Virus record (IMG/VR): IMGVR_UViG_3300025009_000896
Span: 19,189-83,188 of that record
Length of the DNA: 64,000 nucleotides
Reading direction: 5' to 3' (one strand)
Origin: a virus
Under the pieces are notes generated by a model. It ran no database searches. It saw only the letters and a program-made list of their open reading frames with translations, and was not told where the DNA came from. The stretch's first letter is position 1; each line of letters opens with the position of its first letter. Both the position numbers and the translations under genes were made by a program. Of this stretch, positions 3,584-38,993 are shown in pieces.

Positions 3584-4276
3584 ATGAAAAAAGAGAAACC
3601 AATTTTATTCAGCACCGAAATGGTACGTGCTATCATCGAAGGGCGGAAGAGCCAGACGAGAAGAGTAGTAAAACCACAAAGGGAAGCAGCATCTTTTAAG
3701 ATAGCCGTAATGCCTGATGGAACTAAAATGCCATTTGGTATTGACGAAGAAGAGGCTATGCTTGATTACATCAAATGTCCTTACGGCCAGCCCGGAGATA
3801 TGCTTTGGGTGAAAGAGATGTTTTATGCCTATGGTATGTGGGTTAAAAACGGGCGCACCAAGTCCGGCAAACAAAAGTGGGTATTTATTGACACGACTGC
3901 TGCCGGTGAATATCGCTATTTTGATAACCCTCCCGCCGAAGTCTTACCCAACTCAGATAGAGAGACTATGGGATGGTTTAAGCGGAACTCTCTGTTTATG
4001 CCATATAAAGCCTGCCGGATAAAGCTGAAGGTAACGGATCGCAGGGTGGAGAGGTTGAATGACACCTCAGAAGAGGATGCGATTGCGGAGGGAGTGATTG
4101 GAGTACAGAGAGCCGGAGGATATGGGTATGGGTTAAGCAAAGATTGGGACTATAAATTCCCCATGCATGAACCAACTCGAATTATGGCTTATAAACGGCT
4201 TTGGGAATCCATCAACGGCAAGGGATCGTGGGAAAAGAATGAGCGGGTGTGGGTTATCTCCTTTGAGAGATTATAG
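3584..4276 (+). CDS. ASCH/PUA-domain phage protein
   Basis: KPILFSTEMVRAIIEGRKSQTRRVVK...CPYGQPGDMLWVKE...RVERL...W...VWVISF. Confidence 0.85.
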   Translation: MKKEKPILFSTEMVRAIIEGRKSQTRRVVKPQREAASFKIAVMPDGTKMPFGIDEEEAMLDYIKCPYGQPGDMLWVKEMFYAYGMWVKNGRTKSGKQKWVFIDTTAAGEYRYFDNPPAEVLPNSDRETMGWFKRNSLFMPYKACRIKLKVTDRRVERLNDTSEEDAIAEGVIGVQRAGGYGYGLSKDWDYKFPMHEPTRIMAYKRLWESINGKGSWEKNERVWVISFERL

Positions 4277-5216: not shown

Positions 5217-5504
5217 ATGAAAATACAGCCACTTATGCCCAGGGAAAGCCGAGAGTTCGGGTTACTCGGAGAGCGAATAAAACTTGCAAGGCTACGGCGC
5301 AAGTATAGTGCAGAACAGGTGTCCGAAAGAGCGGGGATATCCTTAGACGCGTTATCATCCGTAGAGTCGGGCGATGTTGATGTCAGCATTGGCGTTTACT
5401 TCTCTGTTCTAAGATCATTAGGGTTAGGGGGGGCTATTTATAAGATCGCCGAGGACGACACATTAGGCAGAAAACTACAGGATATAGAATTATTAGGGCG
5501 ATAA
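5217..5504 (+). CDS. XRE-family helix-turn-helix protein
   Basis: LGERIKLARLRRKYSAEQVSERAGIS...VESGD...Y..VL..LGL...DDTLGRKLQD. Confidence 0.85.
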   Translation: MKIQPLMPRESREFGLLGERIKLARLRRKYSAEQVSERAGISLDALSSVESGDVDVSIGVYFSVLRSLGLGGAIYKIAEDDTLGRKLQDIELLGR

Positions 5505-5779
5505 TGCCCCTCTCCCTACTGCCATAGCGGTAATATTAGCTGAAAAGCACTTATATTCCATGAAAAACGCTTATAAGCAGCTATAATCATTATAAATGTC
5601 CCAATCTTGGTAGCCACGGTACTTAAATAGGAACATTTTTAATGATAAAGGTGATGGCAACACGTTAAAACCGCAAGACCCGGTACACATCTTGATGTAT
5701 CGGGTCTCGAAACTCCTTCTTCCGATTATGGAAAGATGAGCACCGCAAAGGTAATAAAAAATAAGCAGCAGCGTCTTAT

Positions 5780-18239: not shown

Positions 18240-19384
18240 AAGAAGCCTTTACACACATCTATGATACGAATGTGTGGGGATCAGACGAAAGCGCATCAGG
18301 AACAGGATCAGAAATGGGAAGCACAAGAGACATAAGAGAAAATCTGCCAATACTATTTGAAAAGTATAACATCAAAAGTCTATTAGACATTGGCTGTGGA
18401 GACTTTAATTGGATGAGAACTATCGTAGGTGGCCTTGATAGCTACTTGGGGATAGATATTGTCTGCGGAATAGTACAGAGAGATAGGTCTCTATACGAGA
18501 GCGATAAGGTTAAGTTTATGTGCAAAAACCTTAACGACATCAGCGAAGAAGTGTATCAGGACTTTGATGCGGTAATTATAAGGGATGTTTTTGTTCACCT
18601 TCCCCTTGCCGACGTTGCGGCTATGATTGACAAGCTAAGGTTAGGAAACATTCAGTATTTATTTTCGTCTACGTTCCTTGGTTGGGGCACGAATGTAGAC
18701 ATCAGCGCAGGACGATGGAGGCCGATTAACTTACTTAAAGAACCATTTAACCTACCACATCCGATAGAGACTATCAACGGATACTCGGAGCCATACTCGA
18801 TTACCGAAGGCGTTACGTTGACAGATAAGGCACTGCTTATGTGGAGGATGCCAAGGGTCTCAACCAACAAACATAATGTATTCTCCAACTATCATGCTCA
18901 TAGGCAGATAAGAATGATAAGACCGATCTCTGCGACTGACGTGGGCACTGGTGATGGTTATTGGGGTAAGGCTTTGAGCCTTTTGTGTCCTGAGTGTGCC
19001 GTTACGGGGGTAGAACTATCATCTAAGTGGTACGACCACTCTGCCCCTTTGGGTGTTTACTCTACAATGATAAACGATACGATGGTCAATGCCATAAATC
19101 AGGTTAGCGGAGACCTTATTATCTTCGGAGACGTGTTAGAACACGTACCGAAAGAAGATGCTATGGCTACCCTGTCTTTAGCTACGTCTCGATTTAGGTA
19201 TGTGATTATTAACACTCCGGTAGGGTTTGTGGCACAAGAGCACGAAGATACGGAGGAGATACACAGATGTGGGCTGACCCGTGAGGATATGAATGAGTTT
19301 GACGTTATGGAGTATCAGGAGTCTGATGGTAAAATTGAATATAAGGTGTTTAACTGCTTAATACGTGGCACTTATGGGGGTTAG
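18221..19384 (+). CDS. double class I SAM-dependent methyltransferase
   Basis: WG..ESASGTGS...LLDIGCGDFNWM in domain 1; DVGTGDGYWG...FGDVLEHV in domain 2. Confidence 0.85.
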   Translation: MGETNIKEAFTHIYDTNVWGSDESASGTGSEMGSTRDIRENLPILFEKYNIKSLLDIGCGDFNWMRTIVGGLDSYLGIDIVCGIVQRDRSLYESDKVKFMCKNLNDISEEVYQDFDAVIIRDVFVHLPLADVAAMIDKLRLGNIQYLFSSTFLGWGTNVDISAGRWRPINLLKEPFNLPHPIETINGYSEPYSITEGVTLTDKALLMWRMPRVSTNKHNVFSNYHAHRQIRMIRPISATDVGTGDGYWGKALSLLCPECAVTGVELSSKWYDHSAPLGVYSTMINDTMVNAINQVSGDLIIFGDVLEHVPKEDAMATLSLATSRFRYVIINTPVGFVAQEHEDTEEIHRCGLTREDMNEFDVMEYQESDGKIEYKVFNCLIRGTYGG

Positions 19385-30971: not shown

Positions 30972-31658
30972 ATGCAATTAAAGGATATAGATGTTTCAAG
31001 ACTATCATTCGACATATTTGATAGCGACTTCACAACGACTATAAAAGAAAAGATACCTGAGTTCAACGAATACGAAGGAGTGATACCTGAGTTAGACGTA
31101 TTCAGGTTTGTTGTTATAATGTGGGATATGAAGTCTCCTATGTTACGTGAGGTTGATGACTATTATGCACGTATGTATGCTACCGCATCAATGGTGGGGT
31201 TCCCAAGGACTAAAAACAACTTCAGCAAGGAGGCAGACGAGATAATCATAGGTAAGAATGAGAGCGTGAACAGGATGATAGTAGCCTATACTGCGTACAT
31301 GGGCGTACCCGAGTATCAGTACCTAATGGCTTATCAGGCGCTGTTCGCAAGTGAATACGCTAAAGTTTTGAGGGGCAAGGGCGGCAAGGACAGCGACAAG
31401 ATATTAGAGAACGCAAGCGGGAAGGTCACTAAGTTCACGAGGGCTATCTTCGGGTCGGGAGACTACGATGAGTACTCTTTGAGGAGACAGGCGTTGTATC
31501 AGAAGATTGAGAAAGACAAATTAAGATTAAGACCCGAGCAGATCATCAGGGACTTAACGGATAACGGAGATTTGCCTGAAGACTTTAACCCCTACGGTGA
31601 CTACTCTATCGATATAAATAAGGATATTAAGTTCGTTGGTGATGGCAAAGAAGGTTGA
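30972..31658 (+). CDS. putative terminase small subunit or packaging-associated protein
   Basis: Directly upstream of and overlapping TerL; positional inference only. Confidence 0.45.
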   Translation: MQLKDIDVSRLSFDIFDSDFTTTIKEKIPEFNEYEGVIPELDVFRFVVIMWDMKSPMLREVDDYYARMYATASMVGFPRTKNNFSKEADEIIIGKNESVNRMIVAYTAYMGVPEYQYLMAYQALFASEYAKVLRGKGGKDSDKILENASGKVTKFTRAIFGSGDYDEYSLRRQALYQKIEKDKLRLRPEQIIRDLTDNGDLPEDFNPYGDYSIDINKDIKFVGDGKEG

Positions 31659-33978
31659 TTACACCGAACTTTACGTTCCGGCTGACACTGTTTTTGCAAT
31701 TAATAACCTCGATCCAGATCGAAAGACTATCGTTTTGTCTCTGCCCAAACCACCGAACGTAAACACTATTGATAATTTTGGCCTACACCCTGACGAACAG
31801 TATTTCAAACGGTGGAAGACACCTAAGAAGCTATTAACTATTGAAAAAGAGGTCTTAAGAGAACTTCAGGATATTCAAAAGGGCAACAGACAGGAGACTG
31901 TAACGGGGTATAAAATAATTGACAAGTTCTGGGATAAGGTAGAAGAAGAAAGGGACGACTTAGAGGCAGAGATAGACTTCATTAAGAAGCTGTGGTGGCA
32001 TAGGATGAACGGCTATTGGTTCTACAACGACGGCAAACCAACGTACATAACCGGAAGGCACTTCATGTTCCTGAACTTCTTTTATCAACCCGATATAACT
32101 ACTAACGACGGGTACCCTGAGTACAGAGACAGACACCGGAGGGAGTTTCTATTCAGAGAGTATCTGAGGCACGCTACCGAGACGTTTGCCAAGAGAGATG
32201 AAAGAGGGTGGGCTGTGCCTAATGCTGATGGTAGTTATGATATGATTGATGTGGGGTCGAGAGTAAGCTATGGAGACATACATCCTAAGTCCCGAAGGAA
32301 CGGTTCTACAATGATGGCATTGTGTGATATGATTGAAAGTTCGGAAAGGAGTTTTGGTATCTACTCTACTATAATTTCAAAAGACGGTGAGGCCACCGAG
32401 GAGCACTACAACCTTAAGCTACTTCCTTCGTGGGTAATGAGGCCGTATTTTCTTAAACCCGTGTGGCAGGGATCGTCCCAACCAACGCAGATAAAATATT
32501 TTCCTCCTAAAAACTACTACGGCAACGAAGCCCTGATGAGTGTCATTGACTACACCGTATCGGCCTCGGAGACTAAAAAAGATGGGTCTAAGTTTAATGG
32601 AGAACTCGTATGCGATGAGGAGGGCAAGGTTTCTGGATTAGGAGTCAACGTCTTACAGAGGTGGGACGTAAATAAGAACGCACTTGCCCTTGGTGACGGT
32701 ACTAAGATATTAGGATACTCTACTCACATCTCAACGGTAGAAGACATCAATGCTGCGGGTATGGCCTTCTTGGATATGCTTGAACTCTCTGACTTTTATC
32801 AAAGGGGAGAGAGTGGGCAGACTACATCAGGTCTTATGGCTCACCTGTATCCTTCTTATGACGGTCAGGAAAACTTCATAGATCGGTATGGTATGTCAGT
32901 CATTGACACCCCCACAGACCGACAGTGCCGCTTATCTCATTCAGCAATCTTCGCTACGCTTAAAAAGGGAGCCAAGCAATATCAACAGGAAAAGAGAGAT
33001 GACTTCTTAAAGAAGGGCACCCCTGCTGCTATGCAGTCTTATAGGGCTTATGTTAAGAAGTACCCGTGGAAGACAAGCGAACTCTATATGTCAACAGTCT
33101 CAGACATGGGCTTTGACTATGAGATACTTGACACCCGAATCATGGAGTTGAGGAAGATGAAGTCCTTGGGTAAGATGCCATATAAGGTCGGGAACTTCTA
33201 CCGTGAGGGAGACCCGTTAGAGGGTAGGGTATATTGGAAGACAGAACCCGAAGGGAAGTTTGAGTTATCCATGGAACTTAAGCCTGAAGAAGCAAATCTT
33301 AAACGTAAAACTTTGGTTTGGGATGGCACTAAGATGTCTATGGTGCCAGCTTGGGAGCCTGTTTATAAAACGAGGTTTACCGCAGGGGCTGATCCATTTC
33401 GTTTCAGGAACAGCAAAGACATCACCACTAATAAGCAATCTGATGGCGGAATAGCAGTATTATGGCACGATTTTTCTAAGCCCAATAAGTCAGAGAATAG
33501 GAAGTTTGTATTGTCATATAGGTATAGACCTCATACATTAGAAGAATACTGTGAGGACTGCATAAAAGTGTGTGAGTATTTTGGGGCTATGTGTTATCCC
33601 GAAAACAACCTCACAGGAGTATATGAGCACTTCATTAAGAGGATGAGGGGCGGATATCTTAAGTACGATCAAGACTCGATCACGGGTCGAGCAAAGGATA
33701 CCCCCGGATATTACGCATCTCCGGGAACAATAAACGACGGGATGTCCCAAATTAAAGATTACATAGTCTTCAATGGAGCAGAAGAAAATCACTTAAGTTT
33801 TTTGGAAGAGGTGCGTGGCATGAGAAGTGTAGATGATTTAACTAATAACGATAGGTTTGCAGCGCACATGGCCAGCTTACTCGGCGCCCTCAGCAGCTAC
33901 GGCAAGGCATCGGATTTTATGAATACTCAAACAATAGACCTCGGGAAAGTCTCTTGGTTACAAAAAAGATCATTTTAA
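31642..33978 (+). CDS. terL: terminase large subunit (crAss-like)
   Basis: GYWFYNDGKPTYITGRH.M.L; KSRRNGST Walker A variant; CDEEGK Walker B; nuclease AGADPF...SDG...YPENN...ND...A. Confidence 0.9.
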   Translation: MAKKVDYTELYVPADTVFAINNLDPDRKTIVLSLPKPPNVNTIDNFGLHPDEQYFKRWKTPKKLLTIEKEVLRELQDIQKGNRQETVTGYKIIDKFWDKVEEERDDLEAEIDFIKKLWWHRMNGYWFYNDGKPTYITGRHFMFLNFFYQPDITTNDGYPEYRDRHRREFLFREYLRHATETFAKRDERGWAVPNADGSYDMIDVGSRVSYGDIHPKSRRNGSTMMALCDMIESSERSFGIYSTIISKDGEATEEHYNLKLLPSWVMRPYFLKPVWQGSSQPTQIKYFPPKNYYGNEALMSVIDYTVSASETKKDGSKFNGELVCDEEGKVSGLGVNVLQRWDVNKNALALGDGTKILGYSTHISTVEDINAAGMAFLDMLELSDFYQRGESGQTTSGLMAHLYPSYDGQENFIDRYGMSVIDTPTDRQCRLSHSAIFATLKKGAKQYQQEKRDDFLKKGTPAAMQSYRAYVKKYPWKTSELYMSTVSDMGFDYEILDTRIMELRKMKSLGKMPYKVGNFYREGDPLEGRVYWKTEPEGKFELSMELKPEEANLKRKTLVWDGTKMSMVPAWEPVYKTRFTAGADPFRFRNSKDITTNKQSDGGIAVLWHDFSKPNKSENRKFVLSYRYRPHTLEEYCEDCIKVCEYFGAMCYPENNLTGVYEHFIKRMRGGYLKYDQDSITGRAKDTPGYYASPGTINDGMSQIKDYIVFNGAEENHLSFLEEVRGMRSVDDLTNNDRFAAHMASLLGALSSYGKASDFMNTQTIDLGKVSWLQKRSF

Positions 33979-33989
33979 TTTTTTATTAT

Positions 33990-33997
33990 TATCTTTG
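33990..33997 (+). promoter_or_regulatory. promoter -7 box for tRNA unit 1
   Basis: TATCTTTG; no clear -33 TTTG. Confidence 0.6.
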
Positions 33998-34001
33998 TGA
34001 C

Positions 34002-34052
34002 ATGAGAATGAATCAACATATAGAGCAGCCGATAAACTTACTTGGTGGGTGA
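34002..34052 (+). CDS. leader peptide 1 (MRMNQHIEQPINLLGG)
   Basis: Short ORF between promoter and terminator; core QHIEQPI matches downstream tRNAs Pro, Ile(UAU), His, Glu, Gln. Confidence 0.75.
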   Translation: MRMNQHIEQPINLLGG

Positions 34053-34072
34053 GGTAACTCTATATTGTATAT

Positions 34073-34103
34073 AGCCCTCCCCACAAGGAGGGTTTTTTGT
34101 TTT
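34073..34103 (+). terminator. attenuator terminator 1
   Basis: AGCCCTCC-CCACAA-GGAGGGTT followed by TTTTGTTTT. Confidence 0.85.
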
Positions 34104-34104
34104 A

Positions 34105-34189
34105 CGGAGTGTAGGTCTGTAGCTGGTAGCAGTCCTGCCTTGGAAGCAGGTGGAGCAATCCCTCGTCGGTTCGATCCCGGCCACTCCGA
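34105..34189 (+). tRNA. tRNA-Pro(UGG) with enlarged variable region
   Basis: Acceptor CGGAGTG/CACTCCG; anticodon arm CCTGC-CTTGGAA-GCAGG; GGTTCGATCCC T arm. Confidence 0.85.
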
Positions 34190-34194
34190 CTTAT

Positions 34195-34265
34195 TGAGGC
34201 TTCGTTTAACGGTAGGACGCACGGCTTATACCCATGTAATCAGAGTCCAATTCTCTGAGCCTCAA
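34195..34265 (+). tRNA. tRNA-Ile(UAU)
   Basis: Acceptor TGAGGCT/AGCCTCA; anticodon arm CACGG-CTTATAC-CCATG. Confidence 0.8.
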
Positions 34266-34267
34266 CT

Positions 34268-34340
34268 GTGTCAGATGCTCGTATGGACAGAGTGACGGAT
34301 TGTGACTCCGTTAGAAGCCAGTTCAAATCTGGTCTGACAC
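34268..34340 (+). tRNA. tRNA-His(GUG)
   Basis: 8-bp acceptor including G-1 (GTGTCAGA/TCTGACAC); ACGGA-TTGTGAC-TCCGT. Confidence 0.88.
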
Positions 34341-34345
34341 CCTAT

Positions 34346-34416
34346 GTTCGGTTCGTCTATCGGTAGGACGGCGGGTTTTCATCCCGTAAAGGCGAGTTCG
34401 ATTCTCGCACCGAATA
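34346..34416 (+). tRNA. tRNA-Glu(UUC)
   Basis: GTTCGGT/ACCGAAT; GCGGG-TTTTCAT-CCCGT; GTTCGATTC. Confidence 0.9.
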
Positions 34417-34421
34417 CATAT

Positions 34422-34492
34422 TGCCCTGTCGTATAGAGGTGGTACACATGGCTTTGAACCATGCGGAGAAGGGTCAGTACCTTCCGGGGCAT
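34422..34492 (+). tRNA. tRNA-Gln(UUG), atypical T loop
   Basis: TGCCCTG/CGGGGCA; CATGG-CTTTGAA-CCATG; T arm GAAGG-GTCAGTA-CCTTC. Confidence 0.8.
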
Positions 34493-34501
34493 CAAAATAA
34501 A

Positions 34502-34532
34502 TTTGCATATTAAATTAAAAGTATTATCTTTG
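34502..34532 (+). promoter_or_regulatory. promoter for tRNA unit 2
   Basis: TTTG-N19-TATCTTTG. Confidence 0.85.
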
Positions 34533-34551
34533 CAGTAATTAAGGCATAAGG

Positions 34552-34626
34552 ATGCAAATGGTAAGAAAAAATATGGTGAATATTGACCGCACAGGCGCAA
34601 CCGTGCGAAAGGGTATCCCCATATAG
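34552..34626 (+). CDS. leader peptide 2 (MQMVRKNMVNIDRTGATVRKGIPI)
   Basis: 22 of 24 residues belong to the 10 amino acids served by the downstream tRNAs. Confidence 0.8.
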   Translation: MQMVRKNMVNIDRTGATVRKGIPI

Positions 34627-34651
34627 TTCTTTGAAAGGATTATTAAGGCGG

Positions 34652-34683
34652 ATGCCCTCACAAAATGGGGGCATTTTTATTTT
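34652..34683 (+). terminator. attenuator terminator 2
   Basis: ATGCCCTCA-CAAAA-TGGGGGCAT followed by TTTTATTTT. Confidence 0.85.
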
Positions 34684-34753
34684 GGCTTATAGTTTAATGG
34701 TAGAACGCCTCGCTGATACCGAGGTAATTCAAGTCCGATTCTTGGTGAGCCAA
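34683..34753 (+). tRNA. tRNA-Ile(GAU)
   Basis: TGGCTTA/TGAGCCA; CCTCG-CTGATAC-CGAGG. Confidence 0.85.
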
Positions 34754-34759
34754 CAACAT

Positions 34760-34830
34760 TGTGGGGTAGAGTAACGGTAACTCGTGGGGCCCATAACCCC
34801 AAGCTGAGGGTTCAACTCCCCCTCCCGCAA
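34760..34830 (+). tRNA. tRNA-Met(CAU), initiator-like
   Basis: TGTGGGG/TCCCGCA; TGGGG-CCCATAA-CCCCA with consecutive G-C pairs. Confidence 0.85.
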
Positions 34831-34836
34831 CTAATT

Positions 34837-34910
34837 GGGAATGTAGCTCGTATGGAAGTAGCTACGGCCTGTTAAGCCGAAGGTAGAAGGTTCGAGTCCT
34901 TCCGTTCCCG
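34837..34910 (+). tRNA. tRNA-Asn(GUU)
   Basis: GGGAATG/CGTTCCC; ACGGC-CTGTTAA-GCCGA; GGTTCGAGTCC. Confidence 0.88.
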
Positions 34911-34914
34911 CAAT

Positions 34915-34986
34915 GCTCTTATGGTGTAATGAACAGCACAGGGGTCTTCTAATCCCTTAGTTTGGGTTTGATTCCTAATAGGAGCA
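34915..34986 (+). tRNA. tRNA-Arg(UCU)
   Basis: GCTCTTA/TAGGAGC; anticodon loop CTTCTAA. Confidence 0.78.
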
Positions 34987-34991
34987 CAAAT

Positions 34992-35066
34992 GCCTTCGTC
35001 GGCCCCTTGGTGGGGAACCAGACTGTCACTCTGGTAAAACAGACGGATCGTAACCGTTCGGGGGCG
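34992..35066 (+). tRNA. tRNA-Asp(GUC)
   Basis: GCCTTCG/CGGGGGC; CCAGA-CTGTCAC-TCTGG. Confidence 0.82.
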
Positions 35067-35069
35067 CAA

Positions 35070-35144
35070 GGGCTGTTCGTATAGTGGCTATTACTTCTGT
35101 TTTGCAAGCAGGAAACGAGATTTCGATTATCTCACAGTCCACCA
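35070..35144 (+). tRNA. tRNA-Ala(UGC)
   Basis: GGGCTGT/ACAGTCC with G3:U70 identity pair; TCTGT-TTTGCAA-GCAGG; encoded CCA. Confidence 0.88.
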
Positions 35145-35146
35145 AT

Positions 35147-35218
35147 GCGGGATAGGTGTTGACACATACACAGGAGTCTTCCAAACTTCAGTAGACGGAG
35201 GGTTACCGTCATCCCGCT
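35147..35218 (+). tRNA. tRNA-Gly(UCC), atypical D and T loops
   Basis: GCGGGAT/ATCCCGC with U73; GGAGT-CTTCCAA-ACTTC; T arm GACGG-AGGGTTA-CCGTC. Confidence 0.75.
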
Positions 35219-35222
35219 CTAA

Positions 35223-35293
35223 GTGATCGTAGCAAATCGGTTATGCCCCGCCCTTTTAAGGCGGTGAGATTGGTTCGACTCCAATCGGTCACA
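35223..35293 (+). tRNA. tRNA-Lys(UUU)
   Basis: GTGATCG/CGGTCAC; CCGCC-CTTTTAA-GGCGG; GGTTCGACTCC. Confidence 0.9.
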
Positions 35294-35298
35294 CAAAT

Positions 35299-35371
35299 GC
35301 GCTCATAGCATAATGGAAAGTGTGCAAGGCTACGAACCTTGGCGGTTGGAGTTCGACTCTTCATGGGCGTA
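35299..35371 (+). tRNA. tRNA-Arg(ACG)
   Basis: GCGCTCA/TGGGCGT; CAAGG-CTACGAA-CCTTG. Confidence 0.88.
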
Positions 35372-35376
35372 CTAAT

Positions 35377-35448
35377 GCTCCATAAGCATTGATGGCGATG
35401 CGCTAGTCTTGTAAACTTGAAAGCAGGGTTCGATTCCTTGATGGAGCT
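35377..35448 (+). tRNA. tRNA-Thr(UGU)
   Basis: GCTCCAT/ATGGAGC; CTAGT-CTTGTAA-ACTTG; GGTTCGATTCC. Confidence 0.88.
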
Positions 35449-35468
35449 CAGGTGGAATTTACAAACTA

Positions 35469-35500
35469 TTTGGAGGTTACAAATCTTTTGTATATCTTTG
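35469..35500 (+). promoter_or_regulatory. promoter of the inserted HNH gene
   Basis: TTTG-N20-TATCTTTG. Confidence 0.75.
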
Positions 35501-35504
35501 TGTT

Positions 35505-35924
35505 ATGGAAAAGAAAAAAGAATGTCCTAAATGTGGAATTAAAAAAACAATAGATTATTTTACTAAGTCTAAATCGCGCAAGGATGGGTTTGGGTCTTTT
35601 TGCCTAGAGTGTGGAAGAAAATACGGGCGGCTTCATTATAAAAATAATAAAGCTGAATATATTAAAAGAATATCCTCTAACAAAGAAAGGGTTCGTGATC
35701 TTTATATAACTCTTAAAAAGTCATATGTATGCAGTAAGTGCGGGGACAATAGATGGTATGTGTTAGATTTTCATCACGAAGGAAATAAGGAATCTGACAT
35801 AGCCCATATGGCATCGGAGGGATATTCAATAGATTCCATTAAAAAAGAGATAGAAAAATGTATAGTGTTATGTTCTAATTGCCACAGAGAATTACATTAC
35901 AAACAAAATGGGGGCATAGTTTAA
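35505..35924 (+). CDS. HNH homing endonuclease inside the tRNA array
   Basis: CPKC...CLEC zinc finger; CSKCG...LDFHH...EIEKCIVLCSNCHRELH; 3' end overlaps tRNA-Val. Confidence 0.9.
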   Translation: MEKKKECPKCGIKKTIDYFTKSKSRKDGFGSFCLECGRKYGRLHYKNNKAEYIKRISSNKERVRDLYITLKKSYVCSKCGDNRWYVLDFHHEGNKESDIAHMASEGYSIDSIKKEIEKCIVLCSNCHRELHYKQNGGIV

Positions 35925-35979
35925 TTGGCAAAACGTTTGTGTTACATACAAGTCATGACGTTCGAGTCGTCTGCCCCTA
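35910..35979 (+). tRNA. tRNA-Val(UAC)
   Basis: GGGGGCA/TGCCCCT; TTTGT-GTTACAT-ACAAG; GTTCGAGTC. Confidence 0.8.
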
Positions 35980-36016
35980 CTAATATTGTTCGATTCCAGT
36001 AGAGACTACAAGTTTA

Positions 36017-36048
36017 TTTGCATATATTAAAAACAATGATTACCTTTG
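36017..36048 (+). promoter_or_regulatory. promoter for tRNA unit 3
   Basis: TTTG-N20-TACCTTTG. Confidence 0.85.
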
Positions 36049-36055
36049 CCTTGAA

Positions 36056-36115
36056 ATGAGAAATTGTTGGTCATATAGTTCGTTTTTACTCTTGCTCTCA
36101 AAGCGAGGTAGATGA
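36056..36115 (+). CDS. leader peptide 3 (MRNCWSYSSFLLLLSKRGR)
   Basis: Core CWSYSSFLLLLS; downstream tRNAs are Leu, Leu, Ser, Tyr, Ser. Confidence 0.8.
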   Translation: MRNCWSYSSFLLLLSKRGR

Positions 36116-36137
36116 CCTATATATCCATATAGCATAG

Positions 36138-36168
36138 ACCTCGCCCATAAAGCGGGGTTTTTTATTTT
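36138..36168 (+). terminator. attenuator terminator 3
   Basis: ACCTCGC-CCATAAA-GCGGGGT followed by TTTTTATTTT. Confidence 0.85.
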
Positions 36169-36244
36169 GCTCCGGTAGCCCAATTGGTAGAATGGCAACG
36201 GGTTTAAGCCCCGTTCAGTGTCGGTTCGAATCCGACTCGGAGTA
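36169..36244 (+). tRNA. tRNA-Leu(UAA), short variable loop
   Basis: GCTCCGG/TCGGAGT; ACGGG-TTTAAGC-CCCGT; GGTTCGAATCC. Confidence 0.88.
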
Positions 36245-36249
36245 CAAAT

Positions 36250-36325
36250 GCCGCAGTAGCAGAATTGGCACGTGCGTTAGTCTTAGAAACTAATAGTTAT
36301 GTGAGTTCGAATCTCACCTGCGGTA
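36250..36325 (+). tRNA. tRNA-Leu(UAG), short variable loop
   Basis: GCCGCAG/CTGCGGT; TTAGT-CTTAGAA-ACTAA; GTTCGAATC. Confidence 0.88.
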
Positions 36326-36329
36326 CTAA

Positions 36330-36421
36330 GGATGGGTGAACCCCAGTTGGCCTAAGGGGGACGGTCTTGAAAACCGTAGGTCGCTCAAAACGGCGTGGGG
36401 GTTCGAGTCCCTCCCCATCCG
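36330..36421 (+). tRNA. tRNA-Ser(UGA)
   Basis: GGATGGG/CCCATCC with G73; ACGGT-CTTGAAA-ACCGT; long variable arm. Confidence 0.9.
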
Positions 36422-36427
36422 CAATAT

Positions 36428-36496
36428 GGGAGTAATTCTTTGGAGAAGACGGGTCTGTAACACCCCAAATAGAAAGTTCGATGCTTCCTACTCCCA
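36428..36496 (+). tRNA. tRNA-Tyr(GUA), compact or degenerate
   Basis: GGGAGTA/TACTCCC; CGGGT-CTGTAAC-ACCCC; short D and variable regions. Confidence 0.65.
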
Positions 36497-36501
36497 CTAA
36501 T

Positions 36502-36586
36502 GGAGGGCTGCTGTAATGGTATCAGAGCGGTTCGCTAAACCGTCCGTCAGCAATGGCGTGGCAGGGTTCGACTCCCCCGTCCTCCG
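36502..36586 (+). tRNA. tRNA-Ser(GCU)
   Basis: GGAGGGC/GTCCTCC with G73; GCGGT-TCGCTAA-ACCGT; long variable arm. Confidence 0.85.
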
Positions 36587-36635
36587 CACTGATTTCTCAC
36601 ATTCACTATCTTTGTGGATATAAAAATATCCGCAA

Positions 36636-38993
36636 GTGATTAGACTCGAAAAGTATATCGGCGGGATAAGCCCAAGTAGAGACATAGCCCCCGAGAAAAA
36701 GACAGAAGTATATTGTAGAAAAAATGCCGAGTTTCTGTATGGTCTTTGGTGCGGATCGGCCACAGCTTGGGGCTATGACTCCCTCTCGTTTTTTAATGAG
36801 ATGCGGCAGTATAGCAATGGGGCTCAGGATACAAATCAATATAAAAGTTTTTTAACCAACTCGGGGGCAAATAACTCTGAGACTTTTAGTCTGTATGATA
36901 ATGATGCAGGCATAACGCAACGAGCAAAACGCGACGGATATTATAACCTGCTATGGCAGAATCTTTCTCCTGCGCCGAAGATTCTCAATGCATTACACGG
37001 GGCTTTGGGTTCTTATGATTACGATCTTTACTGCGATACCATAGATGCCAATTCGAGGGGATTGGTAGAGTTTGAAAAGTTTAAGAAGTTTCACGAGGCT
37101 CGTGATATAAAGTGGCAAACGGAATATAAAACTAAGGCAGGTATCCCCGTCGACGAAGACGCTAACTTTCCTAAGACACTTGAGGAATTAGAAGCCTTCT
37201 CCGCAAGGGAAGGGTTTAAACTGAATATAGCCCGTGCTATGCAGAAGGTGCTAAGGCATGGGTTTAATGTCAGCGATTGGGACGGGTCTATCAGGAAGAA
37301 GCTGTTAGACGACCTTATTACTTTAGGCTACTGCGCCGCAGAAGACTTGTATGACGACGAAGATAGGCTGTTTAAAACACAATGGCTTGACCCCGCAAGG
37401 ACTGTGATGCAATTTTCCCACGAGAAAGATTATTCGGATGCAGAATATGGTGGGCACTTCTCAGAGTGGACAATCTCTAATGTAAGGCGTAAAAGACCTG
37501 ATCTTACTGAAGATGAGTTGTATGCTTTGGCTAAAAACAATAAGGGCAATTTTAACAACCCAACAATACAGTGGGGGGAGAGAACGAGTATGCTTGACAT
37601 AACAAGTAACTCTTACCTTTATGATGACTTCAAGGTAGCAGTGTTTAAGGCTTATTGGATAGATACCGACACTTACAAGAGCCTCTACTATAACAACAAC
37701 TCCGGTCGGGAGATGGTCAAAGAGGTGGGGTATGATGAGAAGATAACCCCCTTAACCAAAAACCAAATAGCTAAAGGCAAAAAGCAAGAGGTAAAACAGA
37801 CTAAAATCAGGGTTGTTTATCAGTGTTCATGGGTAGTGGGGTCTGAGATATGTTGGGATCATGGTAAGCTATTGATGGGTGCAAGGCCGCAGCCGTCTAA
37901 GCCTAAGATACCTATCCACGTTGAGCAGTTGCTACAACCTTCTATTGTCTACAGGCTTAAGCCTATCTTAGACTCAATAGCCTTGACGTGGCTACAGCAT
38001 CAGAACTCTATGGCTAAGATGATAGAGAAGGGCTATGCCGTGAATATGAGCATGTTGATGAATGTAACGATGAATGGGAAGGATGCATTAGACCCTGCTG
38101 GTGTTTTAAATATGTGGAAGCAGACGGGGATTCTACCTTATATGTATGGTGGGGCTAATGGGCAATACCCGGGTGGGGCCGCTATTCCCGTCACTCCTAT
38201 TGACGGAGGATTAGGGAATAGAATACAGGAGACCGCTATGGCCTTAGAGACTAACTTCAAGCTAATTGAGGAGATAGTGGGGATAAACCCTGTTGCAATG
38301 GGGTCTACTCCTACTAAAGACTCACAGGTAGGTACTACCGAGATGGCGATGCAGGCCACATCCAACGTGCTTAAACCTATAGTAGAGGGTATGTTCGAGA
38401 TCAAGCAGAGTCTTGGTTCAAGTTTAATGTTAAGAACACAGATAGGTCTTAGGGTAGATAAAGACATAAGAGATGCCTATGCAGGTATTATCTCTCCTTC
38501 TGATATTAAGTCGTTGGTTTTGGCAGAACACAATAGTGTTCAGTATGGCATTAGCCTTAAGGCCAAGCCTGATGATAAACGTAAAGCTACGCTGCTTAAC
38601 TTCATTACTCTTGAAGTAGAGAAGGGCACATTGGGTTCACCGGAAGGAATGTACTTTGCCGAAAGATTAGAATCGGGTGCAGACATGATAGAACTCCGTC
38701 AGGAGATAGCCTATGCAATAGAAAAAGGACAGCAGCGTAAGATGCAAGAGTCGTTGGCTACTATCCAAGAGCAGAATAAGGGTATGCTTGAAAACGAACA
38801 GCTTAAGGGGCAGAACGAACAGGCTAAGATCAATGCCGAGGGACAGGTGAAGATGGCTGAAGAAGCCCTAAGAGGGGATATAAAGCATAAGTTACAGAGA
38901 CAACAGAATAATGCAGAATTAATGAGCAGACTCTTTGATGATGTGGCTGCTGAAAAAGAAATAAAGAATGACAACACCAGAAGACAGGCTTAA
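36636..38993 (+). CDS. portal protein (crAss-like)
   Basis: 785 aa between TerL and capsid; R.Y..G.Q...YK; IEEIVGIN...GSTP; Q-rich coiled-coil C-terminus; promoter TATCTTTG at 36607. Confidence 0.8.
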   Translation: MIRLEKYIGGISPSRDIAPEKKTEVYCRKNAEFLYGLWCGSATAWGYDSLSFFNEMRQYSNGAQDTNQYKSFLTNSGANNSETFSLYDNDAGITQRAKRDGYYNLLWQNLSPAPKILNALHGALGSYDYDLYCDTIDANSRGLVEFEKFKKFHEARDIKWQTEYKTKAGIPVDEDANFPKTLEELEAFSAREGFKLNIARAMQKVLRHGFNVSDWDGSIRKKLLDDLITLGYCAAEDLYDDEDRLFKTQWLDPARTVMQFSHEKDYSDAEYGGHFSEWTISNVRRKRPDLTEDELYALAKNNKGNFNNPTIQWGERTSMLDITSNSYLYDDFKVAVFKAYWIDTDTYKSLYYNNNSGREMVKEVGYDEKITPLTKNQIAKGKKQEVKQTKIRVVYQCSWVVGSEICWDHGKLLMGARPQPSKPKIPIHVEQLLQPSIVYRLKPILDSIALTWLQHQNSMAKMIEKGYAVNMSMLMNVTMNGKDALDPAGVLNMWKQTGILPYMYGGANGQYPGGAAIPVTPIDGGLGNRIQETAMALETNFKLIEEIVGINPVAMGSTPTKDSQVGTTEMAMQATSNVLKPIVEGMFEIKQSLGSSLMLRTQIGLRVDKDIRDAYAGIISPSDIKSLVLAEHNSVQYGISLKAKPDDKRKATLLNFITLEVEKGTLGSPEGMYFAERLESGADMIELRQEIAYAIEKGQQRKMQESLATIQEQNKGMLENEQLKGQNEQAKINAEGQVKMAEEALRGDIKHKLQRQQNNAELMSRLFDDVAAEKEIKNDNTRRQA

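Follow-up and report, generated by a model that had tools for sequence, protein, structure and literature searches.

Why and when phages use the transfer RNA (tRNA) genes that they carry is an open question, for which codon-usage matching, replacement of a degraded host tRNA pool and escape from tRNA-cutting defences are the current ideas. The question is raised again by the 64,000-nucleotide (nt) stretch analysed here (hereafter the window), which covers positions 19,189 to 83,188 of the IMG/VR virus record IMGVR_UViG_3300025009_000896, an 83-kb record estimated to be 86% complete. Between the genes for its large terminase (TerL) and its portal protein lie 21 tRNA genes, arranged in three units, each of which has a TAnnTTTG box, a short open reading frame (ORF) and a hairpin with a U tract ahead of the tRNAs. 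What, then, is the role of the short ORF of unit 1? A preliminary description, made from the letters alone, had proposed a leader peptide whose codons match the downstream tRNAs down to the isoleucine isoacceptor. As argued below, unit 1 is probably a ribosome-mediated (leader-peptide) transcription attenuator controlling a five-gene phage tRNA operon, while the isoacceptor part of the proposal is a good deal more tentative.

Leader ORF 1 and its promoter

The codons 5-11 of leader ORF 1 name all five of the specificities encoded downstream, i.e. Pro, Ile(UAU), His, Glu and Gln, and no others (Table 1). This exact coverage had been asserted in the preliminary description and is borne out by the ARAGORN and Rfam tRNA calls. 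The set {E,H,I,P,Q} represents 22.3% of the codons in the long ORFs of the phage, and a run of at least seven codons from it appeared in 44 of 300,000 simulated 15-codon ORFs drawn from the phage's own codon usage (P about 1.5e-4). Among the 574 ATG ORFs of 10-40 codons present in the six frames of the window, a single one, leader 1, carries such a run. As for the two other units, leader 2 has a 20-codon run covering ten of the ten amino acids of unit 2 (28 of 300,000 simulations), and in leader 3, 12 consecutive codons come from {L,S,Y,W,F,C}, a length reached by none of 300,000 simulated ORFs. Jointly, the three leaders poll all 20 amino acids.

Concerning the tRNA genes themselves, 18 are called by ARAGORN at default settings and the rest (Gln(ttg) 34422-34493, Gly(tcc) and Tyr(gta)) by Rfam and by ARAGORN with a relaxed threshold. 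The homologues of Gln(ttg) in three related contigs (L022, L037 and L038, see below) are called by default ARAGORN.

Leader ORF 1 starts 4 nt past a TATCTTTG box, and a spacing of 4-5 nt to the ATG is found in five of five homologues. In Bacteroidetes, the primary sigma factor has TAnnTTTG as its -7 consensus (PMC7366714), and the box occupies positions -12 to -5 in Flavobacterium psychrophilum (PMC9723704). In the window, TATCTTTG is about six-fold over-represented (19 sites vs. 3.2 ± 1.5 in shuffles) and probably marks the promoters of this phage. It also stands ahead of the HNH gene (35493) and the portal gene (36607), and further plus-strand sites lie at 898, 7215, 14078, 23501, 29442, 46155, 53469, 61771 and 63149. 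For unit 1, the predicted +1 falls on the A of the ATG at 34002, and the messenger RNA (mRNA) is therefore predicted to be leaderless.

Table 1. Features of the window and of the leader-tRNA units in two cultured phages
Feature	Position	Strand	Details
TerL gene	31636-33978		phrog_6681
Promoter -7 box, TATCTTTG	33990-33997	+	Bacteroidota TAnnTTTG type; start predicted from motif
Leader ORF 1	34002-34052	+	ATG 34002, TGA 34050-34052; 16 codons and TGA; encodes MRMNQHIEQPINLLGG
Regulatory codons 5-11	34014-34034	+	CAA CAT ATA GAG CAG CCG ATA (Q H I E Q P I)
Region 1, AACATATAGAG	34015-34025	+	last base of CAA and the His-Ile-Glu codons; pairs with 34057-34069 in the ribosome-free minimum free energy fold; duplex -8.8 kcal/mol
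Antiterminator hairpin (2:3)	34045-34084	+	outer stem 34045-54/34076-84, inner stem 34060-65/34069-74; -14.8 kcal/mol alone
Intrinsic terminator	stem-loop 34073-34094, U tract 34093-34103	+	terminator scan; -12.7/-12.8 kcal/mol; ends 1 nt before tRNA-Pro
tRNA-Pro(UGG)	34105-34190	+	default ARAGORN, Rfam; 86 nt, enlarged variable region
tRNA-Ile(UAU)	34195-34266	+	default ARAGORN, Rfam
tRNA-His(GUG)	34268-34342	+	default ARAGORN, Rfam
tRNA-Glu(UUC)	34346-34417	+	default ARAGORN, Rfam
tRNA-Gln(UUG)	34422-34493	+	Rfam 43.9 bits (34422-34492); ARAGORN -ps90; alignment to Gln tRNAs of relatives; missed by default ARAGORN
Unit 2	promoter box 34525-32, leader ORF 34552-34626, terminator 34650-76	+	leader MQMVRKNMVNIDRTGATVRKGIPI
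Unit 3	leader ORF 36056-36115, terminator 36136-60	+	leader MRNCWSYSSFLLLLSKRGR; ahead of Leu, Leu, Ser, Tyr, Ser
Portal gene	36636-38993		phrog_6547
Gundel_1 unit A			TATGTTTG, 4 nt, ORF MKTKLYSYSCFSSWFKNRAG, terminator; then Tyr, Trp, Phe, Ser, Cys-like, Ser
Gundel_1 unit B			TATATTTG, 4 nt, ORF MKTNNLHIQQNNLPVFLEGFLYM, terminator, HNH gene; then Pro, Gln, Met, Asn, Leu(UAG)
Calle_1 leader A			MKTIMNIATDIRTKGVKLLGRSRVL; then Lys, Ile, Gly, Met, Asp, Thr; further on Val, Arg, Ile(UAU)
Calle_1 leader with Tyr to Cys			MKTNMTYNNFSWYSNCSFSSYNVERLYLS (run YNNFSWYSNCSFSSYN); then Tyr, Ser, Ser, Asn, Trp, Phe, Cys
Calle_1 leader with Pro to Arg			MNARLLHQEPLEQLRLPSRVSYHGIDELS (run RLLHQEPLEQLRLP); then Pro, Glu, Gln, His, Gln, Leu(UAA), Arg(ACG)

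Alternative folds and the position of the ribosome

Downstream of the regulatory codons, GTGGGTGAGG (34045-34054) and CCTCCCCAC (34076-34084) form an outer stem, interrupted by one bulged T, around an inner CTATAT/ATATAG stem (34060-34074). This antiterminator spans the stop codon and consumes the 5' arm of the terminator; its coordinates, bulge and inner hairpin are exactly those given in the preliminary description. With -14.8 kcal/mol vs. -12.7 kcal/mol for the terminator, it can compete, a comparison on which the proposal had been made to depend. Because the pairing of region 1 (34015-25/34057-69) is added to the antiterminator and the terminator, the predicted layout is the classical 1:2 / 2:3 / 3:4 arrangement of attenuators.

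The ribosome was modelled as a 28-nt mask moved codon by codon along the ORF, using both an equilibrium and a nascent-transcript fold model. At equilibrium, the terminator probability is 0.93 without a ribosome or with the A site at codons 2-3, then 0.24, 0.13, 0.05, 0.04, 0.07 and 0.38 at codons 4-9 (N Q H I E Q), 0.67 at codons 10-11 (P I) and again 0.92-0.93 from codon 12 to the stop. When the mask is made to end 3 nt earlier or later on its 3' side, the low window moves by one codon only and still covers the Q/H/I/E codons. The equilibrium switch score amounts to 0.65 vs. 0.00 ± 0.07 for dinucleotide shuffles of the pre-terminator sequence, none of the 300 shuffles reaching 0.65; the nascent-transcript score was reached by 4 of 300. 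Unit 3 of the window behaves similarly, with a terminator probability of 0.97 without a ribosome, 0.00-0.35 at codons 4-13 and 0.94-0.97 afterwards. Unit 2 also switches like units 1 and 3, except that its terminator is already low (0.16) without a ribosome.

Unit 1 thus combines a short ORF near the predicted start, codons cognate to the genes that follow, a terminator before the first tRNA and an antiterminator that depends on ribosome position; these parts, their geometry and their alternative folds are computed from the sequence. As an attenuator, it would work in the following way. Transcription would begin on, or immediately beside, the A of the start codon (34002), and a ribosome would translate the 16-codon leaderless ORF. 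If the codons were read fast, the ribosome at the last codons or the stop would cover 34045-34054, the terminator (34073-34094) would form and RNA polymerase would stop 1 nt short of tRNA-Pro. If the ribosome were to linger on any one of the polled codons, the aminoacyl-tRNA being scarce, region 1 would be hidden and 34045-34054 would be free to pair with 34076-84; the antiterminator would then take the 5' arm of the terminator and the polymerase could continue into tRNA-Pro, Ile(UAU), His, Glu and Gln. Since the products are the tRNAs whose codons are polled, the supply of tRNA would be under negative feedback, and the remaining tRNAs would be controlled in the same way by units 2 and 3. Translation of the ORF and the effect of stalling on termination are what we infer; the scarcity in the infected cell might arise from a mismatch with the host pool, from host shut-off or from tRNA-cutting defences.

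Close relatives, cultured phages and the surrounding locus

Five distinct leader-1 homologues were compared, those of the window, L022, L037, L038 and L058. The three-unit array and its leaders are present in the metagenome contig L022 and in the IMG/VR contigs L037 and L038, and a collapsed array is found in the IMG/VR record L058, to which a second such record, L067, is identical in this region; L074 is a partial contig with unit 3 only. The leader 1 peptides are MYRIQHIEQPIIPLTG in L022, MIRIQHIEQPIDLLTG in L037, MIRIQHIEQPQQPRADIGSG in L038 and MIRIQHIEQPISLLTG in L058. In codons 5-10 (QHIEQP), none of the 12 first and second positions varies, and three of the six third positions do, all synonymously; the Pro codon alone occurs as CCG, CCC, CCT and CCA, i.e. 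all four CCN codons. Past this core, the replacements stay within the set (I I P in L022, Q Q P in L038). Likewise, in the nine codons of leader 3 from Tyr on, three are variable and each is a Leu/Ser swap. Each of the five leader 1 versions has one Gln codon CAA and the other CAG, the order being CAA..CAG in the window and L037 and CAG..CAA in L022, L038 and L058.

Regions 2-4 differ in sequence among the leader 1 homologues. The MAFFT alignment of the five versions is not structure-aware there, and the helices were therefore described sequence by sequence. In the nascent-transcript model, the 5' arm of the terminator is, in all five homologues, paired upstream more often while the ribosome occupies the core codons than once it has reached the last four codons and the stop: 0.87 vs. 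0.28-0.32 in the window, 0.95-1.00 vs. 0.18-0.38 in L022, 0.65 vs. 0.03-0.13 in L037, 0.86-0.92 vs. 0.47-0.52 in L038 and 0.85 vs. 0.04-0.36 in L058. In the equilibrium model, the terminator drop is seen in the window, L058 and L037. The CATATAGAG:CTCTATAT helix (1:2) belongs to the ribosome-free minimum free energy fold of the window, L022, L038 and L058, and it is clearly dominant in the nascent-transcript model only in L022 and L038.

These data bear on an alternative explanation, in which the hairpin would be a constitutive terminator, or a processing or stability element, between transcription units, and the small ORF would be non-regulatory, being either untranslated (its match owed to chance or descent) or translated into a micropeptide that has some other function. 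The hairpin lies about 95 nt past the TerL stop and could end the TerL transcript, and L058/L067 keeps leader 1 ahead of unrelated tRNAs. TerL and the ORF are, however, separated by a promoter, and the same arrangement recurs in units 2 and 3, neither of which has a protein gene ahead of it; a terminator serving TerL only was rejected on these grounds. Moreover, chance is made unlikely by the statistics of the match, the switch score passed its control against shuffles, the core varies only synonymously with later substitutions within the set, and leaders have regrouped along with their tRNAs in two other phage families. We consider this explanation of unit 1 quite improbable.

The four close relatives are not independent tests, because of their shared ancestry, and it is for this reason that independent support comes from two cultured phages. 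Tenacibaculum phage Gundel_1 (Pachyviridae, NC_062747.1) has two leader-tRNA units, and Cellulophaga phage Calle_1 (Pervagoviridae, NC_062744.1) has three, each with an ORF followed by a hairpin and U tract before the first tRNA (Table 1). The Tyr tRNA of Gundel_1 was identified by its 82.9% identity to that of the window. In the five leaders, the runs drawn from their own sets measure 10, 6, 9, 16 and 14 residues. With two amino-acid backgrounds, the simulated P is at most 5e-6 for Gundel_1 leader A, about 2e-3 for Gundel_1 leader B and about 1e-2 for Calle_1 leader A, and the runs of the two other Calle_1 leaders, C and D, were reached in 0 of 200,000 simulations each. When leaders and units are cross-matched, each leader fits its own unit best.

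The grouping of the tRNAs differs among the lineages, and the leaders follow it. tRNA-Asn sits with unit 2 in the window, with Pro/Gln/Met/Leu in Gundel_1 and with Tyr/Ser/Trp/Phe/Cys in Calle_1, and in all three lineages Asn codons are found in the leader of whichever unit holds it; Gundel_1 leader B, for instance, contains NNL..QQNNLP. The Leu run of window leader 3 is absent from the Tyr/Trp/Phe/Ser/Cys leader of Gundel_1 (leader A, YSYSCFSSWF), and no Leu tRNA follows in that unit. Leader composition thus tracks tRNA content across lineages, and this covariation through rearrangement is the strongest argument for a functional match.

The same covariation is relevant to another explanation, namely that the attenuator chiefly reports amino-acid starvation or general translational stress, i.e. 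charging and not abundance, and raises all phage tRNAs together. As known from trp and his attenuation, a stalled ribosome cannot distinguish a missing from an uncharged tRNA, and the three leaders together poll 20 of the 20 amino acids. A general sensor, however, needs no restriction of each leader to the amino acids of its own unit, a restriction that persists as leaders regroup with tRNAs in three lineages, and extra tRNA does not relieve amino-acid starvation. Even with the induction of a cyanobacterial tRNA array by translational stress, described in PMC8421152, we regard a starvation or stress sensor as unlikely.

Several observations weigh against an attenuator matched to its tRNA set. 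With only one or two codons for each amino acid, the polling is weaker by design than in the his or phe leaders, which carry runs of codons. In the folding models, the terminator of both Gundel_1 leaders stays at 0.81-0.96 throughout at equilibrium; two of the five leader 1 homologues, L022 (0.59-0.91) and L038 (0.91-0.95), show no switch in that model, and L037 and L058 have no dominant 1:2 block without a ribosome. In terms of the match, Gundel_1 leader B has His and Ile codons (CAT ATA) without a His or Ile(UAU) tRNA in the scanned stretch L077 3701-5900, and in L058/L067 leader 1 precedes a collapsed array that does not match its set. Window leader 3 has Cys, Trp and Phe codons, and its array ends at Ser(gct) without those tRNAs; compared with the actual set of unit 3 (Leu, Ser and Tyr only), its run is reduced to 5, which was reached in 827 of 300,000 simulations. 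Finally, the predicted start carries a caveat, as leaderless initiation is uncommon in Bacteroidota: 5' untranslated regions shorter than 10 nt are given for about 3.7% of Bacteroides mRNAs (PMC7366714) and 5.5% of F. psychrophilum mRNAs are leaderless (PMC9723704).

Two of these mismatches may reflect gene loss. Since relatives still carry Trp, Phe and Cys, window leader 3 seems to record tRNA genes lost in this lineage: a Trp tRNA matching the W codon of leader 3 is present in unit 3 of L022, L037 and L038, a Phe tRNA in L037 and L038 (L022 has an Rfam tRNA at 3593-3665) and a Cys tRNA in L022 by reading of the sequence. The loci compared are 36056-36587 in the window, 3515-3740 in L022, 5701-5937 in L037 and 8343-8670 in L038. 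As for L058 (4396-4975, minus strand; same in L067), an intact leader 1 and terminator are followed by decayed Pro and Trp, then Phe and Cys and a TerL-side gene; Pro and Trp are called by relaxed ARAGORN only, Rfam giving no match at its gathering score, and the array looks like a deletion derivative, from within Pro to within Trp. Taken together, the preliminary proposal of a leader-peptide attenuator matching the downstream tRNA set finds support in the folding, the conservation and the recurrence in two cultured phages.

Further details were noted in the arrays. An extra tRNA-Leu(CAA) is found in unit 3 of L038 (8098-8171) and L074 (minus strand, 300-373), and leader 3 of these two contigs has two TTG codons vs. 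one in the other three genomes. In L037, Tyr and Ser(gct) are separated by a different inserted ORF (about 5316-5750). The tRNA-Pro homologues of L022, L037 and L038 measure 74-76 nt vs. 86 nt in the window. In Gundel_1, unannotated Tyr-like and Trp tRNAs (L077 4059-4206) lie upstream of the first annotated tRNA (Phe), and the HNH gene (L077 4793-5299), located between the leader B terminator and tRNA-Pro, overlaps the start of the latter (5285). In Calle_1 (L079, minus strand), an unannotated Ala-like tRNA stretch (anticodon TGC by eye) lies between the leader A terminator and tRNA-Lys. The leader ORFs are unannotated in the GenBank records of both phages, and the paper on them gives only tRNA counts, the strings 'attenuat' and 'leader' being absent from its text (PMC8776804). 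No tRNA is annotated in the second half of Cellulophaga phage phi46:3.

Relatives were sought with TerL and with leader patterns. Among viral contigs, a search with the TerL protein alone led to 4 loci (38% identity) devoid of tRNAs, and a 32-sequence TerL alignment gave 4 further loci, three without tRNA and one with a single tRNA-Met and no array. In metagenome contigs, the same alignment gave 20 loci; 13 were scanned for tRNAs, with an array only in L022 and, in three of the 13, a single ARAGORN call (Thr) near TerL with no leader evident. Genome contigs gave no match to the TerL alignment or the leader-1 pattern. The first two pattern scans of viral contigs led to L037 and L038. Later ones gave 33 new loci, of which only L058 and L067 are true relatives (the other 31 being without tRNA); another gave 4 new loci, only L074 being a relative, and a further one only known loci. 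No close DNA relative came up in the phage collection, whose matches were tRNA-sized only.

Concerning the rest of the locus, the tRNA order of unit 2 is Ile(GAU), Met, Asn, Arg, Asp, Ala, Gly, Lys, Arg, Thr, an HNH gene and Val. The HNH endonuclease ORF (35505-35924; phrog_2255, E 1.2e-32) has its own TATCTTTG box at a 4-nt spacing, and its last codons overlap the 5' end of tRNA-Val (35909). A recoded genetic code was rejected, TerL and portal being open under table 11 and no suppressor tRNA being present among the 21 tRNAs. The phage is uncultured and probably has a host in Bacteroidota, which TerL also suggests: its matches by tblastn (87 phage records, all below 60% identity) belong mostly to phages of Flavobacterium (68), Cellulophaga (15), Tenacibaculum (2) and Maribacter (1), with one unnamed Caudoviricetes. 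Several TerL homologues (P0003, P0008, P0028, P0029, P0031 and P0109) measure about 1160-1190 amino acids and contain PF05204, PF05203 and PF14528, which we take to be Hom_end and intein-type Pfam domains; this would suggest inteins inserted in the terminase.

Isoacceptors, known systems and biological meaning

The preliminary description had also held that the match is made by isoacceptor: ATA would report a shortage of the AUA-reading tRNA and not the general Ile supply, leader 1 using ATA ahead of Ile(UAU) and leader 2 using ATT/ATC ahead of Ile(GAU). Both Ile codons in the seven-codon run of leader 1 are indeed ATA. The core Ile codon is ATA in five of five leader 1 homologues and ATT in four of four versions of leader 2, while neighbouring synonymous sites drift, and Ile(UAU) belongs to unit 1 and Ile(GAU) to unit 2 in all four full arrays. 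In the 31 plus-strand ORFs of at least 200 amino acids (12,810 codons), however, ATA is the commonest Ile codon (54%), so that two ATA of two have a chance of about 0.29, and ATA accounts for 9 of the 18 Ile codons when all five leader 1 versions are pooled, i.e. the background rate. As for leader 2, ATT and ATC are present as claimed, but its last sense codon is ATA, in four of four versions.

The relatives divide in the same way. In Calle_1, the matched run of the Pro/Glu/Gln/His leader is without an Ile codon and Ile(UAU) is located outside that unit, whereas the ATA of Gundel_1 leader B has no Ile(UAU) tRNA in the stretch scanned. Codon 4 reads AAT, ATT, ATC, ATA and ATT across the five leader 1 homologues (ATT/ATC in L022, L037 and L058), codons 11-12 of L022 are ATT ATT, and ATT or ATC lies inside or adjoining the sensing window in L022, L037, L038 and L058. 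Furthermore, the invariant core ATA is paired in the 1:2 helix (CATATAGAG with CTCTATAT), and RNA structure could therefore fix it. For Gln, His and Glu, a codon-level match adds nothing, because each anticodon reads both codons of its box, and the Pro codons CCC and CCT of the relatives could be read only with four-way wobble at U34. For specificities other than Ile, matching by codon therefore adds little to matching by amino acid. The isoacceptor claim is suggestive only, and we hold it to be rather doubtful.

The attenuator proposed for unit 1 has its nearest counterparts in logic among the multivalent enterobacterial leaders, of which thr polls Thr and Ile and ilvGMEDA polls Ile, Val and Leu. 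With these, as with the trp and his leaders, it shares a promoter-near short ORF with regulatory codons followed by an intrinsic terminator, exclusive 2:3 and 3:4 pairings with a candidate 1:2 pairing, and a stop codon that would let the finishing ribosome block region 2; with thr and ilvGMEDA it also shares the polling of several amino acids by one leader. The genes concerned are five tRNA genes, outside the classical scope of biosynthesis enzymes or a synthetase, and, unlike in the four enterobacterial systems, the output would feed directly on the sensed quantity. Unit 1 also differs from the enterobacterial leaders in being phage-borne, predicted to be leaderless and provided with a Bacteroidota-type promoter. 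The nearest counterpart in target class is the pheST attenuator of Escherichia coli with its pheM leader peptide, in which a component of the translation apparatus serving the polled codon is likewise attenuated; that system is chromosomal, controls an aminoacyl-tRNA synthetase and polls one amino acid, whereas unit 1 is phage-borne and would control tRNA genes and poll five.

T-box riboswitches, which are about 200 nt or longer, also couple tRNA state to terminator read-through via an antiterminator; they bind uncharged tRNA through a specifier codon, without translation. A T-box was rejected for unit 1, since Rfam cmscan of 33000-38000 gave no T-box match at E values up to 1 and the element is too short. 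Leader 1 has no Rfam leader-family match either, its only overlap being with P9 sRNA (20 bits, E 0.63), and none of the families Trp_leader (RF00513), Phe_leader (RF01859) and Leu_leader (RF00512) reached its gathering threshold. Leader 3 of the window (36062-36165) scored 27.7 bits (E 0.014) with Trp_leader vs. 41 needed, and leader 3 of L022 (2994-3110) 28.1 bits with Phe_leader vs. 55 needed, 21.9 bits with Leu_leader and 20.1 bits with Trp_leader.

Two further systems are comparable. The trn operon of Anabaena sp. PCC 7120 is a long extra tRNA array, silent until translation is impaired, and is controlled at the promoter via direct repeats and the repressor TrcR (PMC8421152, PMC10272220); the physiological logic is the same as that proposed for the phage units, but with promoter repression instead of attenuation, and 'attenuat', 'leader' and 'terminator' are absent from the main text of PMC8421152. 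In mycobacteria, leaderless polycysteine short ORFs are reported to act as Cys-responsive attenuators (bioRxiv 10.1101/834739), in which the codons of a leaderless short ORF sense supply and downstream genes are tuned, as would be the case here; unlike the phage units, they concern one amino acid, a different phylum and protein-coding targets. Full-text literature searches gave no description of leader-peptide attenuation of tRNA genes; most subscription journals were outside their coverage, so that this is not proof of novelty.

In a broader and speculative perspective, codon-polling leaders may be a general, undescribed control layer of the tRNA arrays of Bacteroidota phages, with representatives in at least three lineages, of which two are cultured. 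The blocks of tRNA genes would be self-correcting, switched on by a falling tRNA pool, with isoacceptors resolved where they are split between units (AUA/Ile-UAU vs. AUU/AUC/Ile-GAU), and would be an answer to codon mismatch or to tRNA-destroying defences. If this is true, the phage measures decoding speed codon by codon and makes only those tRNAs that are short. Classical attenuation would here have a new use, feeding back directly on the supply of tRNA, in a phylum in which control by leader peptides has received little study, and it would provide a natural readout of the tRNAs that are limiting during infection. As the design is present in two cultured phage-host pairs, those of Gundel_1 with Tenacibaculum sp. 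AHE14PA and of Calle_1 with Cellulophaga sp. HaHa_2_95, the idea is testable at the bench now. Leaders such as window leader 3, with its Cys, Trp and Phe codons, may also serve as records of lost tRNA genes and help to reconstruct how the arrays evolved.

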